Origin: Chloroflexota bacterium
GTDB taxonomy: Bacteria > Chloroflexota > UBA11872
NCBI GenBank assembly: GCA_026707585.1
Contig: JAPOWQ010000006.1
Coordinates: forward strand, 174,411 to 238,410
Direction of reading: 5' to 3'
Length of the DNA stretch: 64,000 bases
The notes under the pieces were generated by a model. It searched no databases, was not told where the DNA came from, and was given only the letters and a program-made list of their open reading frames with translations. This document shows positions 43,449 to 55,708 of the stretch, piece after piece. A program made the translations under genes and the position numbers. Within the stretch, counting starts at the first letter, position 1; each line of letters opens with the position of its first letter.

Positions 43449-45407
43449 CTAGCGATCTCCGCCGAGTTCGGCCATGACTTCGCCCATGCGCGCGGTGTCG
43501 TAACCGCCCATGGCGTGGACGGCCTTGGCGAAGGTCGGGTCGCGGAGGATTTCCAGGAGGGCGGCGACAGGCGGGTGCTTCAAGTGCTCGTTGGGAACGA
43601 CGAGGTCGTATTGCTCCGTGCCGACGGGGATGAAGTCGGTGCCGAGGGCGCGGGCGGCGGCGCGGATGCCCAGGGCGGCGTCGGCCATGCCGCTGTCCAC
43701 GTCGGCGGCCACGGCCAGGTGGGTGTACTGTTCGCGGTCGTAGCCCTCGATTGCTGCGGGGTCGATGCCCTCGGTAGCCAGCAGGTGGTCAAGCAGCATG
43801 CGGGTGCCGGCGCCGCGCTGGCGGTTGACGAAGCGAACGTCGGGGCGGGTCAGGTCTTGCAGCGTGCCGAGGCCCCTGGGATTGCCGCGCGGGACGATCA
43901 GGCCCTGCTCGCGTTGGGCGAAGTGGATCAGGGTGACGGCGTGGCCGGGTAGGACGCGCTGCACGTCGGTCTCGTTGTAGATGCCGGTCGTTGGGTCCAG
44001 CAGGTGGCAGCCGGCCAGGTGGGCCTCGCTGCGGCGCAGCGCAACCAGGCCGCCGTAGCTGCCCGCGTTAGTGGAGGCCAGCCGCATGGGTGGCGAGCGG
44101 CGGGAGAGCTCGCTGGCCAGCAGGTCCAGGGCGGGGTCGTGGCTACCGATGGCGACGGCCGTGTGTTCGATGCCCTCGGCTTCGCCCAGGAGTTCCACCT
44201 CGACCTCGGATCCGGCCGCGATTCCTTCGGAAAAGCGCGGGATGGTGACCAAGCCGTCGGCCCGCACGAGCGACATGATCACGCCGGCGGCGCGCTCCAG
44301 CGGGGCGGCGACGATGCGGCTGCCGACGCGGCCGACACGCACGCGGATGAATTCGTCGTCACCAGCATGGGAGACGAGCGGTCGCGGCGTGACGGCCTTG
44401 ACGGTCCGGCGCGGCGGGACGGGACGTCCCAGGCATTGCTCGATTAGCGGGCGGACGAAGAGTTCGAACGTGAGGGCGGCGGAGACCGGGTAGCCGGGGA
44501 TTCCGAGGACAGGCTTGCCGCGGGCGACGCCAAGGACCACGGGGTGGCCCGGGCGGACGGCGACACCGTGCACGAATACGCGGCCCAGGTCGGCGATGAC
44601 GCGGGCGCTGTAGTCCTCGCGGCCCGCGGACGAGCCGGCGTTGATGACGACGATGTCGGCGGATTCGAGCGCGGCCTCGGTGGCGTCGCCGATGGCGTGG
44701 AAGTCGTCGGCCACGATGTCGCCGCGCAGCGTTTCCGCGCCCCAGGTCTCGGCCAGGGCGCCGAGCATCAGGCCGTTGAATTCGATGAGTTCGCCGGGCT
44801 GAGGGTTGCGGCCTACGGGGACGAGTTCGCTGCCGGTCGGAATCACGGCCACGCGGGGCGGCTCGACCACGTCCACTTCCGCGCGCCCGGCGGCGGCCAG
44901 GGCGCCGAGGTCGCGCGGCTCCAGGCGGCGGCCCTGGGGCAGCACGAGCTCAGAGGCCACGATGTCTTCGCCCATGGGCCGCACGTGCTGCCAGGGCGCC
45001 GCGGCGGCGGTGATCTCGATGGTGCCGTCGCGATGGTCGTGAATGTCCTCGATCATGATCACGGCGTCGGTGTCTGGCGGCATGGCGTCGCCCGTGTCGA
45101 TCCAGATGGCCTGGGTGTCCAGCTCGAGCCGGCGCGGGGAGGTCTCGGCGGCACCGACGGTGCTGGCGGCGGCTACGGCTACACCGTCCATGGCGGCGGC
45201 GGGGAAGTGCGGGCTGGAGAGGGCTGCCCAGACGGGTGCGGCGGTGACGTGGCCGAGGGCCTGGTCCAGCGGTAGCCGGAGGGTGCGGCGGGGCGGCCAG
45301 CCGGGGAGTTCGGCCAGCGCCGTCGCCAGGCGTTCGCGCGCGTTGGCCAGGGGCACGTCGGTCAGGTAGACGGCGCGCTGGTGGGAGCTAGAAGGGTTCA
45401 ACGTCAA
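43449..45407 (-). CDS. moeA: Molybdopterin molybdotransferase MoeA fused to a C-terminal periplasmic-binding-protein-like (PBP2-type) domain
   Basis: The MoeA core ('AAMDGVAV', 'GDIVADD...ADIVVINAGSSAG', 'GIPGYPVSA') is followed by ~250 aa resembling a type-2 PBP/LysR-substrate-like fold. Confidence 0.8.
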   Translation of the reverse strand: MTLNPSSSHQRAVYLTDVPLANARERLATALAELPGWPPRRTLRLPLDQALGHVTAAPVWAALSSPHFPAAAMDGVAVAAASTVGAAETSPRRLELDTQAIWIDTGDAMPPDTDAVIMIEDIHDHRDGTIEITAAAAPWQHVRPMGEDIVASELVLPQGRRLEPRDLGALAAAGRAEVDVVEPPRVAVIPTGSELVPVGRNPQPGELIEFNGLMLGALAETWGAETLRGDIVADDFHAIGDATEAALESADIVVINAGSSAGREDYSARVIADLGRVFVHGVAVRPGHPVVLGVARGKPVLGIPGYPVSAALTFELFVRPLIEQCLGRPVPPRRTVKAVTPRPLVSHAGDDEFIRVRVGRVGSRIVAAPLERAAGVIMSLVRADGLVTIPRFSEGIAAGSEVEVELLGEAEGIEHTAVAIGSHDPALDLLASELSRRSPPMRLASTNAGSYGGLVALRRSEAHLAGCHLLDPTTGIYNETDVQRVLPGHAVTLIHFAQREQGLIVPRGNPRGLGTLQDLTRPDVRFVNRQRGAGTRMLLDHLLATEGIDPAAIEGYDREQYTHLAVAADVDSGMADAALGIRAAARALGTDFIPVGTEQYDLVVPNEHLKHPPVAALLEILRDPTFAKAVHAMGGYDTARMGEVMAELGGDR

Positions 45408-46626
45408 CCCAGGCGCCTTCCGCCAGCCCGCCGGCGTCCAGAGGAATGCGTATGAGACCTGCGGCCCGAACCAGCGTGGCGATCAGGTTTGAGGGACCGA
45501 GGACTGGGGTTGCCCACCACTCGCCATCGCGCTCCTGCAGCGCCGTTGGCACGAAGTCGATGCGTCCGGTCTGGGAGGCGAGGCTGCGTGCCAGTCGCGC
45601 CCGACGGCGCGGTGGATCGTCGGCTGGGCCCGCGCCGAGCAGTCGTCGAATGGTCGGTGCGACCACTAGCCCAAACACGACCATGGCGGACACCGGGTTG
45701 CCCGGCAGGCCGAAGACGGGTATGCCGTCGGCCACCGCGACGATGGTGGGTTTGCCGGGTTTGACGGCGATGCCGTGGACCAGCACACCGGGATGGCCCA
45801 GACCGCCGATCACTTCGGCGGTCATGTCGCGGGTGCTGACGGAGCTGCCGGCCGAGATGATGACCAGGTCGCAGGCGGCGAGGGCGGCGCGAGTGAGCCG
45901 TTCCAGTTTCGCGCGGTCGTCGGGCGCCACGCCGAACTCGCGCACGTCTGCACCAGCCTGGCGGGCCAGGGCGGACAGCGTGGTGGCATTGACGTCGCGA
46001 ACCTGGCCGGGGGCGGGTTGGGCGTCCGCGGGAACGATCTCGTCGCCCGAGGAGAGCACTCCGATTACCGGAGGTACCGCCGCTTGGATCTCCGTGATGC
46101 CCAGAGCGGCTAGAACGCCAAGATCCTGCGCGCGCAGACGATGACCGGCCGGCAGCAGCGGGTCGCCGGCGGCCAGGTCATCGCCGGCCTTGATGATGTG
46201 CTGGCCGGGGGCCGCTGGGCGCAGGACTTCGACGGAGGTTTCGTCGACCGGCTGGGTGTACTCCACCATCACAACGGCGTCGGCGCGGGGCGGCAGCATG
46301 CCGCCGGTGTGGATGAGTTGGGCGGTACCTGGCTGCACGGGCCGCGTGGCGGCAGCGCCCATCGGGACCTCGCCGTCCACGGTGAGAAAGGCGGGCAGCG
46401 CTTCGGAGGCGCCGTAGGTGTCGGCGGCGCGGACGGCGTAGCCGTCCATGGCGGAGCGGGCAAAGGCCGGGCTGTCTTCAGGCGAGATGAGCGGCGTGGC
46501 GGTGACTCGACCCAAGGCAGCGTCCAAGCCGATGCGTTCGCTGCTCGGGGTGAAGGGCAGATGCTTGAACAGGCGCGCCAGCGCCTCAGCCGGCGTCGCG
46601 ATTTGGAAAAAGATGTCTGTCGTCAT
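45388..46626 (-). CDS. moeA: Molybdopterin molybdotransferase MoeA (stand-alone)
   Basis: 'SAMDGYAV', 'DLVIISAGSSVSTRD' and 'GLPGNPVSAMV'. Start 'MTTDIFFQ' at 46626, overlapping the 3' end of the fused moeA by 20 nt. Confidence 0.85.
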   Translation of the reverse strand: MTTDIFFQIATPAEALARLFKHLPFTPSSERIGLDAALGRVTATPLISPEDSPAFARSAMDGYAVRAADTYGASEALPAFLTVDGEVPMGAAATRPVQPGTAQLIHTGGMLPPRADAVVMVEYTQPVDETSVEVLRPAAPGQHIIKAGDDLAAGDPLLPAGHRLRAQDLGVLAALGITEIQAAVPPVIGVLSSGDEIVPADAQPAPGQVRDVNATTLSALARQAGADVREFGVAPDDRAKLERLTRAALAACDLVIISAGSSVSTRDMTAEVIGGLGHPGVLVHGIAVKPGKPTIVAVADGIPVFGLPGNPVSAMVVFGLVVAPTIRRLLGAGPADDPPRRRARLARSLASQTGRIDFVPTALQERDGEWWATPVLGPSNLIATLVRAAGLIRIPLDAGGLAEGAWVDVEPF

Positions 46627-46745
46627 GGGGCAGGCCGCGCGGATCGGCTCGTCCGCATTGTCACGCTCGCCGGTGTGGCCGGTCCACGCCTCAGCGGTGG
46701 GAGTCCGCCAGCCGGGGCGAGGTTGGGTGGGGGGTGAAGGGGGGA

Positions 46746-46798
46746 GCTGTCTCTGGCCAGCGCCGCCCCCAAAGGGGGCGGCGCTGGCCAGAGACAGC
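46746..46798. repeat. Perfect inverted repeat / hairpin: 25-bp stem (AGCTGTCTCTGGCCAGCGCCGCCCCC) with 3-nt loop (AAA)
   Basis: Arms checked base by base and perfectly complementary. Lies ~120 bp upstream of the moeA start, in the divergent moeA/groEL intergenic region. 'ATTTTGG' follows on the plus strand. Confidence 0.6.
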
Positions 46799-47190
46799 TT
46801 GGGCCGGATTTTGGCGGAGGATAGGGACGAATCGGTGGGCGAGGCGATAGGACGACCCGGGGCCCTTGCACCTGGCGTGGCGCGCCGGGGCTGTGGGTGG
46901 CCGAGGCGCGGGCGGCGCGGGGACCACGAACCGAGCCAGGGCATGAGACGAGACACCAGGCGGACAAGGGAGACAGGAATGGACGGCTCCGGGGCTGGAC
47001 GCGCATAAACAAGGGTCGATTGTACTCCCGTCGCTTACACCAGGCAAGTCCGAGGCCCAGGGGCGGAATGCGCAGGGTCTGCCAGGGCGGGTCGTCGAGG
47101 CGGCTGGCGGAATGGCTGGTCAGCAGGGCGCCGAAGTCGGGGGAAGCGCGGGCCCTTGTCGGGCAGGCAGATGCTCAGCGTGTTTCCGAC

Positions 47191-50806: not shown

Positions 50807-51237
50807 GGATCGTTCACCATCCCCCTGCTGCGGCAATGCCTGACGGGCTTGCGGCCCGCCTGGTGCCTGGCGCTCCCCGAATCTAACCCTCATCCCCGTC
50901 GGATTTCCACCGCTGAAGGCACACGCGCACCCGCCACGCGGGCTACGCGTTCCCCAACGGCCTGATGTCGCGCGGCTGCGTCTGCAAAGTGGACAGGGAT
51001 GGTTCGCCTGTCGAAGCGGTAGGCGCTTGTGCCGAGAACGCCCGCGCGTCGCATCGTCCGACCCAGCGGTGCGCAAGTCACCGCCTACCCGAGTATACGC
51101 CGATCCGGCGGGCAGGTAGCAGGCAAGTTCAGAGGGTAGAGCCAGGGGCGACCTGGCGACGGTCGCTTCACATTGCGAGCGGTGACACCGGCTGCAACAA
51201 TCAAAGAAATCGGGGCGGTCTCCGGGCGGGAGTGGGG

Positions 51238-51477
51238 ATGGAGGCTATGACCGCCGACAGCGGGCCGCTAACACTGGAAGATCTGCGGCGCGAACTGCGC
51301 GACGAGCGGAGCGAATTGCGCCGCGAATTCGATCGGACCTTGCAGCACTACGCGACAAGGGCCGATCTGGCGAATCTCAAGGCCGAGATGGTTAAGTGGT
51401 TTGCCGGCGTGCTGGTTCTCATCCTGATCAATGTGATCGGTACGCTGGTGACCCTCGTTGTGGCGTTGGGGGCATGA
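51238..51477 (+). CDS. Small hypothetical protein (79 aa) with C-terminal TM helix
   Basis: GGAGTGGGGATGG RBS-like sequence. A charged coiled-coil-like N-terminus precedes a C-terminal hydrophobic helix (tail-anchored topology). Confidence 0.35.
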
Positions 51478-51697
51478 CTGACCGCAGCCTGGCCATTTGA
51501 ACGAGACGGCATTCCGCATTGTCGAGGCCGCGGCGGCCTAGGGCATGAAGTATCCGTGCCAGGACTGACCCGAGCCGTTTTTCCCGAACGGACGCCCATC
51601 TACGTTGCCCACTATCTGTTGCCGGGGGCTTCCCCAATCCTTGAGCTTGTCCCGAAACTCACGGACGTCGAGAGGAACACGCTCACCCCTCAGCCGC

Positions 51698-53047
51698 TTA
51701 CTCGAGCATTCCTCTACTTGCCCACTCCAGAATCTCATCGGACGTTGCCCTCTCGCGGGCAACCTCCTTGTCCATCCCGGGAAAGGGCGAGGTTGGCCGC
51801 AGATCCTCGTCTTTGGGAAGGGGCGAATCCTGGGCACCCTGTAGAGCGCGCAAGAGCGCGACGAGCCGGACGAAGGCGTTGTGAACGGCATTGTGGAGTC
51901 CTGCCAGATACACAACATCAATCCTGGGCAGTTCCGCAGTGGGAAACTGCCCGTTAGAGAGAGGGGCTAGAGCCGAGATCACACGTGTTGGCCCCTCTTC
52001 CAAATCGCTGGCATTCGACTGCATCTTCTGGAGGGCACGCTGGGCGTGGTCTACTGCACGCTGCAGATCAGTCGCCACGGTGGTGCGCGACTTCGCATCG
52101 TAGCGACGAAAAACCCCGATTCGGGACGCCTCATCCAGGCGAGGGAAATCGACTGCACCGTACGCACGCGCCACCATTGAGAACGACGCAATTCGATTTG
52201 CCACGCCGCTATCGGCCAGAGTTACTGAGCCCATCTGATCAGCGTCTAGATTGACCAGTGGTCCAAATAGATCATCTGCGACTCTGTGGCGGATATCTGG
52301 AAATCTAATCTCCTGGTTCAACAGCGCTTCTGGAATCGGACCACCCACCGTTTCCTCGATGCGCTTGCGTTTTCCGGGCACCGTGTCGACGCCTTCCTGA
52401 AGTCTCAGAGTGCGCACTCCGACGAACTTCTGAAGGATCTCTGCGAGTTCTTCCCGGATTAGGTCTCGCTGTCGGGCTTCCCTGACGGTTCCAGTTATCC
52501 CGAGTGCGCTATCGATCTCGGTCGCAATATCAGCGAATTCCTTGAAGCAGTGTAGCCAATTGTCGGCCGGAGGATCATTCTTTCCCTCGCGAGAGGCATT
52601 CGTCTCGGCAACACGCTCCACCTTGTCGATGAAGGCTCGGGTGTGCCCAAAGTCCTGGTATTTGAGCTCTGGATTGCAGCGCCTGATGTCACCGGCAACC
52701 TCGTCACGAACGAAGAACAGTAGCTTTGGACGTCCAGTTTTCCTACGCGATTGGTAGGCGACGTCGTATTCAGCCTCGGTGATGCTACGCTTCGGTTCTT
52801 CGCTGATGAGAGACCCCCGGCGGATCCCGATGAGCAGAACATAGAGATCGGCCCGGTGAATCGCTTCAAAGCAAGCGTCGTAGGTTCCGGGTCCGAGGAT
52901 CTTTTCGGACCCACTGAATTCGCTCATGAACCGGCGATAGCCCAGAGAGTCGAGCCAGAATCGAAGCGCCGAGCGGAGGTCTCGAAAGTCCTCTACCGTC
53001 GAACTCACAAAGACGAGGGGGGCTGACGAGTCGCCAGTGCTTGCCAT
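51698..53047 (-). CDS. Hypothetical protein with a DUF4062-like N-terminal domain (TIR/SLOG-like fold, as often fused to STAND NTPases/effectors) plus ~340 aa of unknown sequence
   Basis: N-terminus 'PLVFVSSTVEDFRDLRSALRFWLDSLGYRRFMSEF' fits the DUF4062 pattern (FISST..DL..ER...). The rest has no recognisable motif. GC is roughly 55% by eye against a ~70% background. Confidence 0.55.
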   Translation of the reverse strand: MASTGDSSAPLVFVSSTVEDFRDLRSALRFWLDSLGYRRFMSEFSGSEKILGPGTYDACFEAIHRADLYVLLIGIRRGSLISEEPKRSITEAEYDVAYQSRRKTGRPKLLFFVRDEVAGDIRRCNPELKYQDFGHTRAFIDKVERVAETNASREGKNDPPADNWLHCFKEFADIATEIDSALGITGTVREARQRDLIREELAEILQKFVGVRTLRLQEGVDTVPGKRKRIEETVGGPIPEALLNQEIRFPDIRHRVADDLFGPLVNLDADQMGSVTLADSGVANRIASFSMVARAYGAVDFPRLDEASRIGVFRRYDAKSRTTVATDLQRAVDHAQRALQKMQSNASDLEEGPTRVISALAPLSNGQFPTAELPRIDVVYLAGLHNAVHNAFVRLVALLRALQGAQDSPLPKDEDLRPTSPFPGMDKEVARERATSDEILEWASRGMLE

Positions 53048-53328
53048 CGCATCTCACCAGGCCGCGTGCAGGTGTCACAGGCTACCGATCGGACGCCCAA
53101 GCATTTCAAACCAACCAGCCGTCCGTATGTCCTTTGTGAGAGTTTCGGTTCGGCCAGTCCAGCACCCGTTGAACGTAGGGCCCATCCGCTCTCCGCTTGC
53201 CCACCGCGACTTGGATGCCCGTGACAGAGTTCGTGAACTCTTGCTCGCTTCCGCAATGTCGCGCTCAGCGTCATTGGCATCGACGCGAGGTGGCTTGGGG
53301 TACTCTGCGGTGACTTCGGTTTCCTAGC

Positions 53329-53583
53329 GTGGCTGCCGTGAGTAAGTACCAACCACTGCGCCGGTTCCTGGCAGACCGCCGCGAGGGTAAGTGGCGGGCA
53401 ACATTCGCCGACGTCGAGGATGTCCTTGGACTCACGCTGTGCACTTCGGCCCGTAAGCATCGGGCATGGTGGGCGAACAGCACCAGCCATCCTGAGGCAC
53501 GTTCCGGCTGGCTGGCAGCAGGGTGGGAGACCAGGAATGTCGACATGGGCAGGGAACGCCTCGTGTTCCTGCGGCAGCGATGA
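53329..53583 (+). CDS. Small hypothetical protein (84 aa) with 'KHRAWWAN...HPEARSGWLAAGWE' motif, translationally coupled (ATGA) to the downstream methyltransferase
   Basis: Its stop TGA overlaps the MTase ATG (cgATGAcc at 53580-53583). The motif resembles small proteins often encoded next to DNA methyltransferases, from memory only. Lower GC. Confidence 0.5.
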   Translation: MAAVSKYQPLRRFLADRREGKWRATFADVEDVLGLTLCTSARKHRAWWANSTSHPEARSGWLAAGWETRNVDMGRERLVFLRQR

Positions 53584-55028
53584 CCGCCGAGGGCCAGCCC
53601 AACTTCGCCAACAAGACGCTTTGGACGGCGGACAACCTCAACATTCTTCGGGGCATAAACTCGGCCTGCGTGGATCTGATCTACCTCGACCCGCCGTTCA
53701 ATTCCAACCGCACCTACGAGGCGCCGGTGGGATCACAGGCAGCCGGCGCGGCCTTCAAAGACGCCTGGACCCTCTCGGACCTAGACGTGGCTTGGATGGG
53801 CCTGATCGCCGACGAGCAACCGGGCATGTACGCGGTGATCGAGGCCGCGGGCCGAGCCCACGGGAAGGGCATGCAGTCCTATCTCTGCATGATTGCGGTG
53901 CGCTTGCTTGAAATGCACCGCGTTCTTAAAGAGACCGGAAGCGTCTATCTCCATTGCGACCCGACTGCCGGACACTATTTGAAATCTATCATGGATGCGA
54001 TTTTCGATCCTGACTCGTTCAGGAGCGAGATTATCTGGAAGCGTTCCAGTGCGCATAGCGACGCGCGACAAGGTCGGAGATAACACGGACGAATACACGA
54101 CATTCTTCTCTTTTACACCAAATCAGATCGTTGGACATGGAATATGATTCATACACCGTATGATCAAGACTATATCGACCGATTCTATCGTTACATCGAG
54201 CCTGGGACGGGGAGACGATATCGCCTTGGCGACCTGACTGGTCCAGGTGGAGCGTCAAAAGGCAATCCGCAATACGAAGTTATGGGCGTAACTCGGTATT
54301 GGCGGTACAGCGAAAAGCGAATGGCCGAGCTAATTGCCGAAGGTCGAGTCGTGCAGTCAAAGCCAGGTGCGGTTCCAGCATACAAAAGATATCTCGATGA
54401 AATGCCAGGTGTGCCTTTGCAGGACATTTGGACCGATATCCGGCCTATTGGTTCGCGCGCGAAGGAGCGTGTAGGTTATCCGACCCAAAAGCCCCTCGCT
54501 TTGCTCGATCGAATCATCAAGGCTTCCAGCAACGAAGGCGATCTGGTGCTCGATCCCTTTTGCGGTTGCGCCACGGCGTGCGTGGCCGCTGAGCTTCTCG
54601 AACGCCGATGGGCGGGAATCGACATTTCGCCGAAAGCAGTGCAACTCGTAAACCATCGTCTGCAGGAAGCGCCGCCATTGGGCATCGGTCCAATGTTTCA
54701 TCACGGCTACGTCACCGTTCGCACAGACATTCCACGGCGGACGGACATCGATGCACCTGGACCCTACCGGAAGCGCGTCCACGAGCTGTTTGGGAAACAG
54801 GAAGGCCGCTGCAACGGCTGCCAGGTTGACTTCCCCTTCCGCATGTTTGAGGTCGACCACATCGTTCCGCGGTCACGCGGTGGCACAGACCACCTTGAGA
54901 ACCTGCAATTGCTCTGCTCGCACTGCAACCGCATCAAGGGTGACCGCGAACAGGCCTACCTGGTCAGCCGCCTAGTCGAGCAAGGCACGCTCAAGCGCGA
55001 CGGTCGCCGTCTCAAGCCGTTTGCATGA
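53580..55028 (+). pseudogene. Beta-class N6-adenine/N4-cytosine DNA methyltransferase (DNA methylase N-4/N-6 family; motif IV 'DPPF' precedes motif I 'DPFCGCATAC') fused to a C-terminal HNH endonuclease; reading frame interrupted by a single in-frame TAA at 54081-54083
   Basis: 'VDLIYLDPPFNSNRTYE' is the catalytic motif IV. 'EIIWKRSSAHSDARQGRR*HGRIHDILLFYTKSD' continues in the same frame across the TAA. 'GDLVLDPFCGCATACVAAELLERRWAGIDIS' is the AdoMet motif I. 'CNGCQ...VDHIVPRSRGGTDHLENLQLLCSHCNRIKGD' is an HNH. Tracks 53523..54083 and 54144..55028 share one frame. Confidence 0.7.
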
Positions 55029-55391
55029 AGTTCGTGCACGGGGGCCGACGGACACCAAGAAAGTCCGGCGGCAGCGGTTCATCTCCGCGGGCGAGTAGCG
55101 CCCCTCAGGGAATCAATCCGTCTGGTTCAGCGACCCGCAGCCGCGCTTCAACACCAAGGCGTCGACAATCTGCCCCTAGGTTGCATGGCTCTCGGCGTAG
55201 GCTAGCCTGAGTAACCGCGGCGACGAGCCGGTTCTCTGATACTCAGACCGCAAGCTCTTTGGGCTGAGACACATCCCCCATGAGACGACGGCGGGATGAT
55301 GCTGTCGGCCGATTAGTTTCGAGACGCTGCGCAATGTGAATGCGTGAGGCGCGGGGAGGTTGTCAATCCGCGTCGCTTATGGGAGGCCGTT

Positions 55392-55628
55392 ATGCCACTT
55401 TGGGTAGATGAGGCAGAGAGGCTTGCAGGTGCTGAAGTCTGGGAATTGGTTGGCACCTCGCCAGGACCGTACCAGTGCGACTTGAGTCGCGGTTGGATTC
55501 CGGAGCACTCGCGCGCTGTGCGTATTCGCGGCAGGCAGTCTGGTACGCGGCTTGTCGTTGGACAAGGCGTCGCGCGCAAATATTTCGGCGTTCGGCTGAA
55601 TCGCGCGGGCGAGCTTATTGACCACTAG
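55392..55628 (+). CDS. Small hypothetical protein (78 aa) at the right edge of the low-GC island
   Basis: ATG 'MPLWVDEAERLAGAEVWELVGTSPGPYQCDL...'. Lower GC and no recognisable domain, so coding status is uncertain. Confidence 0.3.
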   Translation: MPLWVDEAERLAGAEVWELVGTSPGPYQCDLSRGWIPEHSRAVRIRGRQSGTRLVVGQGVARKYFGVRLNRAGELIDH

Positions 55629-55708
55629 CGACCTTTGGTGTTGCGGCGGGGTGGCGGGCTTTTCTAAGCTTTGGGCCAGTCCCGAAAGTCACGGATCGCC
55701 GCTACCGC

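Follow-up and report, generated by a model that had tools for sequence, protein, structure and literature searches.

A DUF4062 protein with a fast-changing C-terminal domain in a Chloroflexota genome: a candidate single-gene NAD+-depletion defence

What might be the function of a gene that joins a DUF4062 domain to a long C-terminal region matching no known family, and that lies beside a DNA methyltransferase gene in a small islet of low guanine-plus-cytosine (GC) content? This question was raised by a gene of a Chloroflexota bacterium (GTDB lineage Bacteria; Chloroflexota; UBA11872). It was found in a window of 64,000 nucleotides, by which the whole stretch of DNA analysed here is meant (GenBank assembly GCA_026707585.1, contig JAPOWQ010000006.1, positions 174,411 to 238,410 of the forward strand). 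The gene, referred to here as the DUF4062-AUX gene for its C-terminal auxiliary (AUX) domain, occupies positions 51698 to 53047 on the minus strand, with an ATG start and a stop codon at 51698-51700. Its open reading frame (ORF) of 449 codons is intact and of full length, and it begins with the residues that an earlier reading of the letters alone (the sequence-only reading) had quoted. An identical protein has been deposited under the name 'DUF4062 domain-containing protein [Chloroflexi bacterium]'. The product of the gene is likely to be a one-protein defence by abortive infection of the DUF4062-plus-auxiliary type, in which, by analogy with systems described recently, a nicotinamide adenine dinucleotide (NAD+) glycohydrolase (NADase) would serve as effector and the AUX would sense the phage. 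Support came from the identity of the domain, its catalytic glutamate and TIR-like fold, a family of full-length relatives, the genomic context and the rapid evolution of the AUX.

DUF4062 was described as a TIR-like NADase that converts NAD+ into ADP-ribose and nicotinamide (Osinski et al., bioRxiv 10.64898/2026.05.01.722283). In the same study Swarozyc was presented as a single-gene abortive-infection defence composed of DUF4062 and an AUX. Its example KpSwz from Klebsiella pneumoniae needs both the catalytic residue E97 and the AUX, which binds the phage portal, and in its structure (PDB 10wc/11cq/11cv) a TIR-like core is accompanied by a small intertwined sheet and by a helical stalk that ends near residue 205. 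The Evangelion systems include Eva01, with the catalytic residue E87, the junction residue W162 and a short but required AUX, and the lineages Eva02-04 (Ibarra-Chavez et al., bioRxiv 10.64898/2026.06.25.731849). Furthermore, the domain was renamed NIR and recognised as the effector of an Avs2 protein, of Vulcan (NIR plus HEAT repeats, E98) and of Vesta, which consists of a NIR protein and an alkaline phosphatase (Le Mouellic et al., bioRxiv 10.64898/2026.09.04.749371). In KpSwz (E97), Eva01 (E87), PsAvs2 (E108), Vulcan (E98) and VstA (E103), defence or NADase activity depends on the equivalent glutamate. The single-gene proteins KpSwz, Eva01 and Vulcan act by abortive infection, for which the catalytic glutamate and the AUX are both needed. 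All tested bacterial DUF4062 proteins deplete NAD+ with formation of ADP-ribose and nicotinamide, and no cyclic products were formed by KpSwz and TEP1. DUF4062 genes are enriched near defence genes (10.64898/2026.05.01.722283, 10.64898/2026.06.25.731849, 10.64898/2026.09.04.749371).

The sequence-only reading had proposed that the N-terminus of the protein resembles DUF4062, a TIR/SLOG-like fold, and a DUF4062 domain with a TIR-like fold was borne out. Pfam family PF13271 (DUF4062) matched residues 12-97 over profile positions 2-82 of 82 (E = 1.3e-14), and the score of 54.6 bits lies far above the gathering cut-off of 24.7 bits. Scans with Pfam, NCBIfam and PADLOC detected no nucleoside triphosphatase (NTPase), nuclease, repeat or other family beyond DUF4062. 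A match to JetC (E = 0.022) was spurious, and the matches to PHROGs were confined to the DUF4062 part. The Pfam model spans just the first half of the catalytic domain, which by structure prediction reaches to about residue 185 (residues ~10-185; 52493-53020, minus strand). In the full-length AlphaFold2 model, which was built on 18 close homologues, strands at residues 11-15, 38-41, 68-73, 108-114 and 165-168 alternate with helices, and the predicted local distance difference test (pLDDT) values of blocks over residues 11-181 are mostly 62-88. The top Foldseek matches of this model in the PDB were the plant TIR domains of RUN1, RPS4 and Roq1 and the SPARTA TIR-APAZ protein (probability 0.95-1.0). 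The predicted structure thus supports a TIR-like fold of the DUF4062 domain.

Conservation pointed to the putative active site. Across the 34 homologues of a diverse alignment (A2), on which the family profile is based, S42, C59, G74, G78, E93 and R114 are invariant, and W164, F168 and F171, which lie close to the last strand, vary little or not at all. Glu93 is the predicted catalytic glutamate because of its invariance and its alignment with KpSwz; its codon occupies 52769-52771 on the minus strand within the motif S-I-T-E-A-E93-Y (52757-52786, minus strand, translates to SITEAEYDVA). A search of the PDB with the single sequence returned nothing, and KpSwz was found by the family profile only. 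The profile matched the DUF4062 domain of KpSwz (10wc_A, E = 2.2e-5) over the first ~90 residues only, and there E93 aligns with the alanine of the deposited E97A mutant chain. The Q-W-E motif of KpSwz and Eva01 aligns with T55-Y56-D57, where the residues differ but the aromatic and acidic character is kept. By analogy with these proteins we infer that the domain is an NAD+ glycohydrolase.

A TIR-like domain might also be active without depleting the bulk of NAD+. It might produce a signalling nucleotide, such as a cyclic ADP-ribose isomer as in Thoeris, hydrolyse another substrate in the manner of NDT or CMP hydrolases, or ADP-ribosylate a target. Such an activity is unlikely, given the ADP-ribose and nicotinamide formed by the bacterial relatives tested so far and the lack of cyclic products of KpSwz and TEP1. 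Moreover, no Thoeris-type partner (SLOG or Macro) was present near the gene or near the homologues examined.

The putative NADase is linked to the AUX by a helical stalk of residues 186-208 (52424-52492, minus strand), which is a single long helix in both AlphaFold2 models (residues 188-208 of the full-length model and residues 3-20 of the C-terminal model). Residues 176-200 show an identity of 0.89 among the orthologues, and conservation falls sharply beyond residue 200. The AUX, the putative sensor, follows with residues 209-449 (about 240 residues; 51701-52423, minus strand). The sequence-only reading had seen no recognisable motif in the last ~340 residues. It is still true that no known family is matched there, but ~110 of these residues belong to the TIR-like domain and the stalk, so that an uncharacterised part of ~240 residues is left.

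The C-terminal AlphaFold2 model (residues 186-449, stalk and AUX), calculated from a 36-sequence alignment of diverse members, reached a pLDDT of 94.0 and a predicted template modelling score of 0.86. In this model the AUX adopts a mixed alpha/beta structure with several long helices, six short strands and no repeat organisation, and it matched no known family or fold. Foldseek found no match among the folds of the PDB (best E 0.37, template modelling score at most 0.31) or among the predicted viral structures of BFVD (best E 0.43), and a profile search of PDB sequences gave no match either. Searches of Pfam with the 36 members gave no consistent match, HEAT or ARM repeats being detected in 0 of 36, and no metabolic enzyme family was matched by the C-terminal region.

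The only invariant residue of the AUX across the 34 diverse homologues is G311. There are no invariant polar residues, and since G311 alone is invariant, no catalytic constellation is evident. The AUX is also mildly acidic throughout the family (median net charge -4), which, together with the lack of invariant polar residues, fits a role in binding better than one in catalysis or in generic binding of DNA. By analogy, the AUX would be the sensor half and the N-terminal domain the effector half of the protein. The idea of a 'novel effector or sensor' in the sequence-only reading can accordingly be divided: as DUF4062 was shown to be an NADase effector in the preprints of 2026, the N-terminus would be an effector of an already known kind, and the C-terminus a sensor by analogy.

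The protein has many relatives of the same build. A word-indexed search yielded 18 homologues including the exact match, 16 of them from the Chloroflexi clade with 65-88% identity and one with 30%. An exhaustive search of representative sequences returned 794 matches at E ≤ 1e-3 and 349 at E ≤ 1e-10, mostly 400-490 residues long. Among 258 fetched homologues, 212, with a median length of 430 residues, match the profile end to end (from position 30 or earlier to position 400 or later of 422). A genome scan with the single protein as query found two loci only. Members occur in Chloroflexi, Planctomycetes (Rubripirellula, Gemmata), Acidobacteria, Myxococcota and Alpha-, Beta- and Gammaproteobacteria; the proteobacterial ones include Enterobacter, Kosakonia, Morganella, Rahnella, Pseudoxanthomonas, Ralstonia and Methylomonas. 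Judged by these sequence comparisons, the DUF4062-AUX architecture defines a broad, unnamed family of ~420-470 residues across many phyla. A blastn search of 5,426 complete E. coli genomes for the enterobacterial clade, which was used as a proxy for Eva03, retrieved no relative at the sensitivity of this method.

A scan of metagenome contigs with a pattern for the AUX alone detected 23 loci, and all 13 complete ORFs among them (13/13) carry a DUF4062 N-terminus. The AUX therefore seems to be tied to DUF4062 and not shuffled among effectors. Short metagenome ORFs that were considered as fusions of the AUX to other effectors turned out to be frameshifted or truncated copies. One of them (L034, 2475-3624) is 5'-truncated and frameshifted and adjoins a large helicase-like gene; the other (L040, 449-685), which has a LexA-like gene at its side, retains only the last ~60-70 residues of a family protein. 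The intact copy from Pseudoxanthomonas (L007) has a LexA/ImuB/DnaE2 cassette upstream as well.

The two halves of the protein differ strongly in their rates of evolution. Rates of non-synonymous (dN) and synonymous (dS) substitution were calculated by the method of Nei and Gojobori between the window and the two best orthologous loci. For the whole gene, a dN/dS of 0.17-0.19 indicates purifying selection overall. The TIR part (residues 1-185) showed an amino acid identity of 0.89-0.91 (dN 0.047-0.059; dS 0.52-0.77; dN/dS 0.06-0.11), and stalk and AUX (residues 186-449) one of 0.56-0.57 (dN 0.31-0.34; dS 1.4-2.0; dN/dS ~0.2). The neighbouring genes for a methyltransferase-HNH fusion, sigma-70, GroEL, COX1, COX3 and CtaG gave a dN of 0.01-0.06 and a dS of 0.34-0.92, and a gene of 146 codons (identity 0.81-0.89) a dN of 0.06-0.11 and a dS of 0.46-0.92. 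The AUX thus changes at about six times the rate of the NADase domain and at 5 to 30 times that of the flanking genes (dN 0.01-0.11), and its dN/dS of ~0.2 means that it is constrained though fast-changing. Averaged over 11 orthologues, the identity is 0.75-0.92 as far as residue 200 and drops to 0.39-0.71 beyond it, so that the break falls where the stalk ends. Such a combination, an effector that is conserved and a C-terminal half that diversifies rapidly, would be expected of an immune sensor. The raised dS of the AUX-coding half (1.4-2.0 versus 0.5-0.8) suggests that the sensor half may be renewed by recombinational exchange, with saturation as the alternative explanation.

The genomic context agrees with the description in the sequence-only reading, according to which the gene is transcribed divergently from a methyltransferase-HNH operon inside a low-GC island. 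The GC content across 51-55 kb is 0.56-0.62, compared with 0.64-0.73 in the flanks, and the DUF4062-AUX gene and the operon share one low-GC islet of 4 kb. The start of the gene (53047, minus strand) faces the operon start at 53329 on the plus strand. The first gene of the operon encodes a small DUF7662 protein (53329-53583, plus strand; Pfam PF24698, E = 3.7e-17), which was also called in an orthologous locus (L002). Its stop codon overlaps the start of the methyltransferase gene (ATGA), which suggests translational coupling, and DUF7662 may be a controller-like partner of the second gene; a literature search found no paper mentioning DUF7662. This second gene (53580-55028, plus strand, 482 codons) encodes a fusion of an N6_N4 DNA methyltransferase and HNH, the Pfam domains N6_N4_Mtase and HNH being detected on two half-ORFs in the same frame. 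It is broken by an in-frame TAA at 54081-54083 (codon 168). At this codon, the two orthologous loci read CAA or CAG (Gln), and both encode an intact protein of 482 residues with 92-94% identity. The TAA is either a genuine nonsense mutation or an assembly error. If it is genuine, the methyltransferase is inactivated, and a C-terminal fragment of 294 residues with the HNH domain is perhaps left.

This premature stop might be taken as a sign that the DUF4062-AUX gene is a decaying, inactive relic as well, and the frameshifted or truncated family members of metagenomes (L034, L040) would be in line with this. Such a decay is nevertheless highly improbable for the copy in the window, whose ORF is of full length, whose invariant family residues including E93 are all intact and whose dN/dS values (0.06-0.11 in the TIR part, ~0.2 in the AUX) reveal constraint in both halves.

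All Chloroflexi loci examined are syntenic orthologues with the order cytochrome oxidase (cox) operon, CtaG, 146-codon gene, methyltransferase-HNH gene (with or without a DUF7662 gene), divergent DUF4062-AUX gene, sigma-70, GroEL and MoeA. The DUF4062-AUX gene might form a composite system together with the operon, for example as an abortive reserve that comes into play once restriction has failed or the methyltransferase has been lost or inhibited. Every orthologous Chloroflexi locus examined has the three genes side by side in a divergent arrangement, and their common islet is bracketed by an imperfect direct repeat of 40 nucleotides. In addition, the family member of Rubripirellula reticaptiva (L009, 10001-11281) overlaps by 8 nucleotides the last gene (HATPase_c_4) of a BREX-like cluster, which also holds an N6_N4 methyltransferase besides an SNF2 helicase and PglZ; the overlap indicates that the gene may be co-transcribed with this cluster.

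Outside the Chloroflexi, however, the neighbours differ from member to member. In Kosakonia, the gene lies beside a Gabija-like pair of an AAA_15/21 ATPase and a UvrD helicase in an integrative element with antirestriction, RadC and CbtA/CbeA genes. In Morganella, the order is smpB, integrase, family gene, Abi_alpha and Abi_C. The member of Pseudoxanthomonas is located among genes of a mobile element (DUF932, RadC, ImuB/DnaE2), and that of a Rhodospirillales bacterium is flanked by IS66 and a serine recombinase and adjoins a mer operon. On a pAt plasmid of Agrobacterium, the gene has a nuclease/ATPase pair on one side and AbiH on the other, with a CBASS phospholipase nearby. Altogether, defence islands or mobile elements were found in six of eight independent contexts, the islet of the window included, and the pairing with a methyltransferase-HNH gene was repeated in no context outside the Chloroflexi orthologues. 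As this neighbourhood is not conserved elsewhere, it points to co-residence in an island and not to a functional unit. The DUF4062-AUX gene is also intact in the window, where the methyltransferase-HNH gene carries the nonsense codon, and the tested proteins of the DUF4062-plus-auxiliary type, which belong to the named systems, act as single genes. A composite system is therefore quite unlikely.

The stable position of the gene could alternatively indicate a housekeeping or regulatory protein of NAD metabolism in Chloroflexi that has no link to phage defence. The synteny between sigma-70/GroEL and the cytochrome oxidase operon is kept over a synonymous divergence of 0.3-0.9, and the ORF list contains no mobile-element genes in the islet. 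Yet the GC content of the islet is foreign, a restriction-modification-like gene lies alongside, the AUX evolves far faster than the flanking genes, and the distant members reside mostly in defence islands or mobile elements. We consider such a role very unlikely.

The following course of events is proposed for a single-gene defence. In uninfected cells the NADase domain (residues ~10-185, Glu93) would be inactive, and the resting state would probably consist of oligomers held together by the stalk. Upon infection, the AUX (residues 209-449) would recognise a cue from the phage, which is more likely to be a protein than a nucleic acid. Binding of the cue might re-arrange or oligomerise the protein and thereby render the NADase sites active. 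The activated domains would then cleave NAD+ into ADP-ribose plus nicotinamide, so that the infected cell would arrest before phage release and the phage would fail to spread. That the protein has NADase activity, is autoinhibited, responds to a phage trigger and brings about abortive infection is put forward here by analogy with Swarozyc, Evangelion and Vulcan.

Several observations weigh against this interpretation. In at least three related Chloroflexi genomes, all of them carriers, the gene is found at one and the same position of the chromosome, whereas a less stable, patchy occurrence would be expected of defence genes. The member of Enterobacter asburiae lies among ordinary chromosomal genes with no recognisable defence neighbours. 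PADLOC v2 contains no model that matches the DUF4062-AUX protein. A scan of the viral contigs of IMG/VR with the Kosakonia protein and a further alignment (A4) found no relatives, and full-length members are rare on plasmids (3 of 72,556 in PLSDB). With regard to the catalytic domain, the mean pLDDT of the full-length model is 71, which is moderate confidence only, and the E-values of the Foldseek matches to TIR domains are weak (0.01-0.1). Finally, the eukaryotic DUF4062 domains of NWD1, NWD2 and NPHP3 showed no NADase activity in vitro despite their fold, and NADase activity can thus not be assumed from the domain alone.

Some further features of the locus remain to be described. In the divergent intergenic region of 281 bp (53048-53328) between the DUF4062-AUX gene and the operon, neither a sigma-70-type consensus promoter nor an Rfam element was found, and scans for promoters, terminators and Rfam elements across the islet were uninformative. 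The left copy of the direct repeat (51626-51665, plus strand) lies just past the stop codon of the DUF4062-AUX gene and the right copy (55656-55695, plus strand) just upstream of the 146-codon gene, so that the pair brackets the low-GC islet almost exactly. The copies match at 31 of 40 positions, and the best of 20 shuffles matched at 29 of 40. The repeat could be an att-like remnant of an insertion, but it is a weak lead because only one recognisable copy is present in an orthologous locus (L001).

The regions at both ends of the islet are less well defined. The ~620 bp that separate the sigma-70 gene from the 3' end of the DUF4062-AUX gene (51077-51697) are poorly conserved between the orthologous loci; only ~200 bp beside sigma-70 align, and Rfam gave no match. 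Two small genes of this side were considered as partners and rejected for lack of conservation between the orthologous loci: an ORF of 78 codons (51241-51477) with a predicted C-terminal transmembrane segment, and a gene of 55 codons called downstream of the DUF4062-AUX gene in L001. On the other side, ~680 bp between the methyltransferase-HNH stop and the 146-codon gene (55029-55708) contain short unsupported ORFs only, for example one of 94 codons (55344-55628) without a Pfam match, where L002 has a different call of 71 codons. Further away in the window, two tandem overlapping genes for MoeA-type molybdopterin molybdenumtransferases were present (43449-46956, minus strand), the downstream one of which (43449-45407, 652 codons) has an extra C-terminal PBP-like domain according to the annotation of L001.

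To our knowledge, phage defence in the phylum Chloroflexi is almost unstudied. The known single-gene DUF4062 systems differ mainly in the AUX, which decides what each of them senses. An AUX that is confidently predicted and has no structural or sequence precedent therefore probably recognises a different infection cue. A more far-reaching proposal, to which we give about an even chance, is that the AUX is a phage sensor of new fold and that the family is a separate lineage of single-gene NAD+-depletion systems, distinct from Swarozyc, Vulcan and Evangelion 01-04. It would comprise hundreds of clusters in at least five phyla, and its Chloroflexi copy would be fixed in the chromosome with a sensor renewed much faster than the effector. 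The members of Enterobacter, Kosakonia and Morganella bring the family within reach of E. coli and existing phage collections. The Chloroflexi orthologues, with their conserved effector, the roughly six-fold faster sensor and the sharp boundary at the stalk, offer a clean natural example of modular evolution of effector and sensor.

How does the DUF4062-AUX protein compare with the named systems? Two of them can be set aside quickly. Avs and other NLR-like proteins possess a central STAND NTPase (NACHT/NB-ARC) and C-terminal repeats, neither of which was detected here, and a protein of 449 residues is too short for this type. Vesta requires an alkaline phosphatase, and the neighbours here, DUF7662, the divergent methyltransferase-HNH gene and sigma-70, include no phosphatase. 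With the TIR-domain effectors of SPARTA (TIR-APAZ), type I Thoeris and plant TIR-NLRs, the protein shares the flavodoxin-like TIR-type fold and the catalytic glutamate, but DUF4062 is a separate sequence family without a Pfam TIR match. The published KpSwz dimer uses an AB interface and not the canonical AE interface (10.64898/2026.05.01.722283).

The likeness to Evangelion consists in the single-gene abortive defence made of a DUF4062 core and a diversified AUX, in the E-Y motif (here E93-Y94) and in an N-terminal aromatic residue (F13). W164 near the junction of core and AUX is the putative counterpart of W162 in Eva01 and W176 in KpSwz. In contrast, Eva01 of Staphylococcus aureus (pMW2) has a short AUX and is borne on plasmids of Staphylococcus and Enterococcus, and the Q-W-E motif is T-Y-D here. 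A DUF4062 protein of an Enterococcus plasmid (392 residues) matched the family profile at positions 5-153 only (hmmsearch), and in a tblastn search of PLSDB the proteins of Enterococcus plasmids shared residues 3-112 only. Because such Enterococcus plasmid proteins match the N-terminal part only, the protein was not assigned to Evangelion type 01.

Vulcan (Enterobacter roggenkampii WP_050009967.1) is similar in having an N-terminal NIR/DUF4062 NADase and a mostly helical, non-enzymatic C-terminus. It occurs in Enterobacteriaceae, and the DUF4062-AUX family has members in Enterobacter, Kosakonia and Morganella, too. The C-terminus of Vulcan, however, was described as HEAT repeats, whereas the AUX here is mixed alpha/beta and no solenoid, and neither the Foldseek search of the PDB nor Pfam detected HEAT or ARM repeats in it. 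In the family member of Enterobacter, the catalytic glutamate is at position 87 and an in-frame stop codon lies five codons upstream of the start, which excludes an N-terminal extension of 11 residues and makes a numbering as E98 impossible. Judged by the published description of Vulcan, the DUF4062-AUX protein is probably a different one.

A close parallel is offered by Swarozyc. Both are single polypeptides with an N-terminal TIR-like NADase of the DUF4062 type, a helical stalk and a C-terminal AUX, the catalytic glutamate is at the aligned position (E97 in KpSwz, E93 here), and the motifs VF(V/I)SST, D.Y.LLIG.R.G and S.TE.E are common to both. The differences lie in the second half. Only residues 7-91 of KpSwz align to the family profile, a second stretch having an independent E-value of 2200, and KpSwz is shorter by ~100 residues. 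Its AUX has a helix-turn-helix/winged-helix core that binds the phage portal with a hairpin. Foldseek found no winged-helix match for the AUX model in the PDB, in a library that probably lacks the KpSwz coordinates, as KpSwz was missing from the matches of the TIR domain, too. Since the homology is confined to the DUF4062 half and the longer AUX has no winged-helix match, the protein was not placed in Swarozyc. By analogy, the same logic would be expected of both, namely sensing by the AUX followed by depletion of NAD+. The effector half is thus of a kind that has been known since 2026, and what is new is the AUX and the wide family around it.

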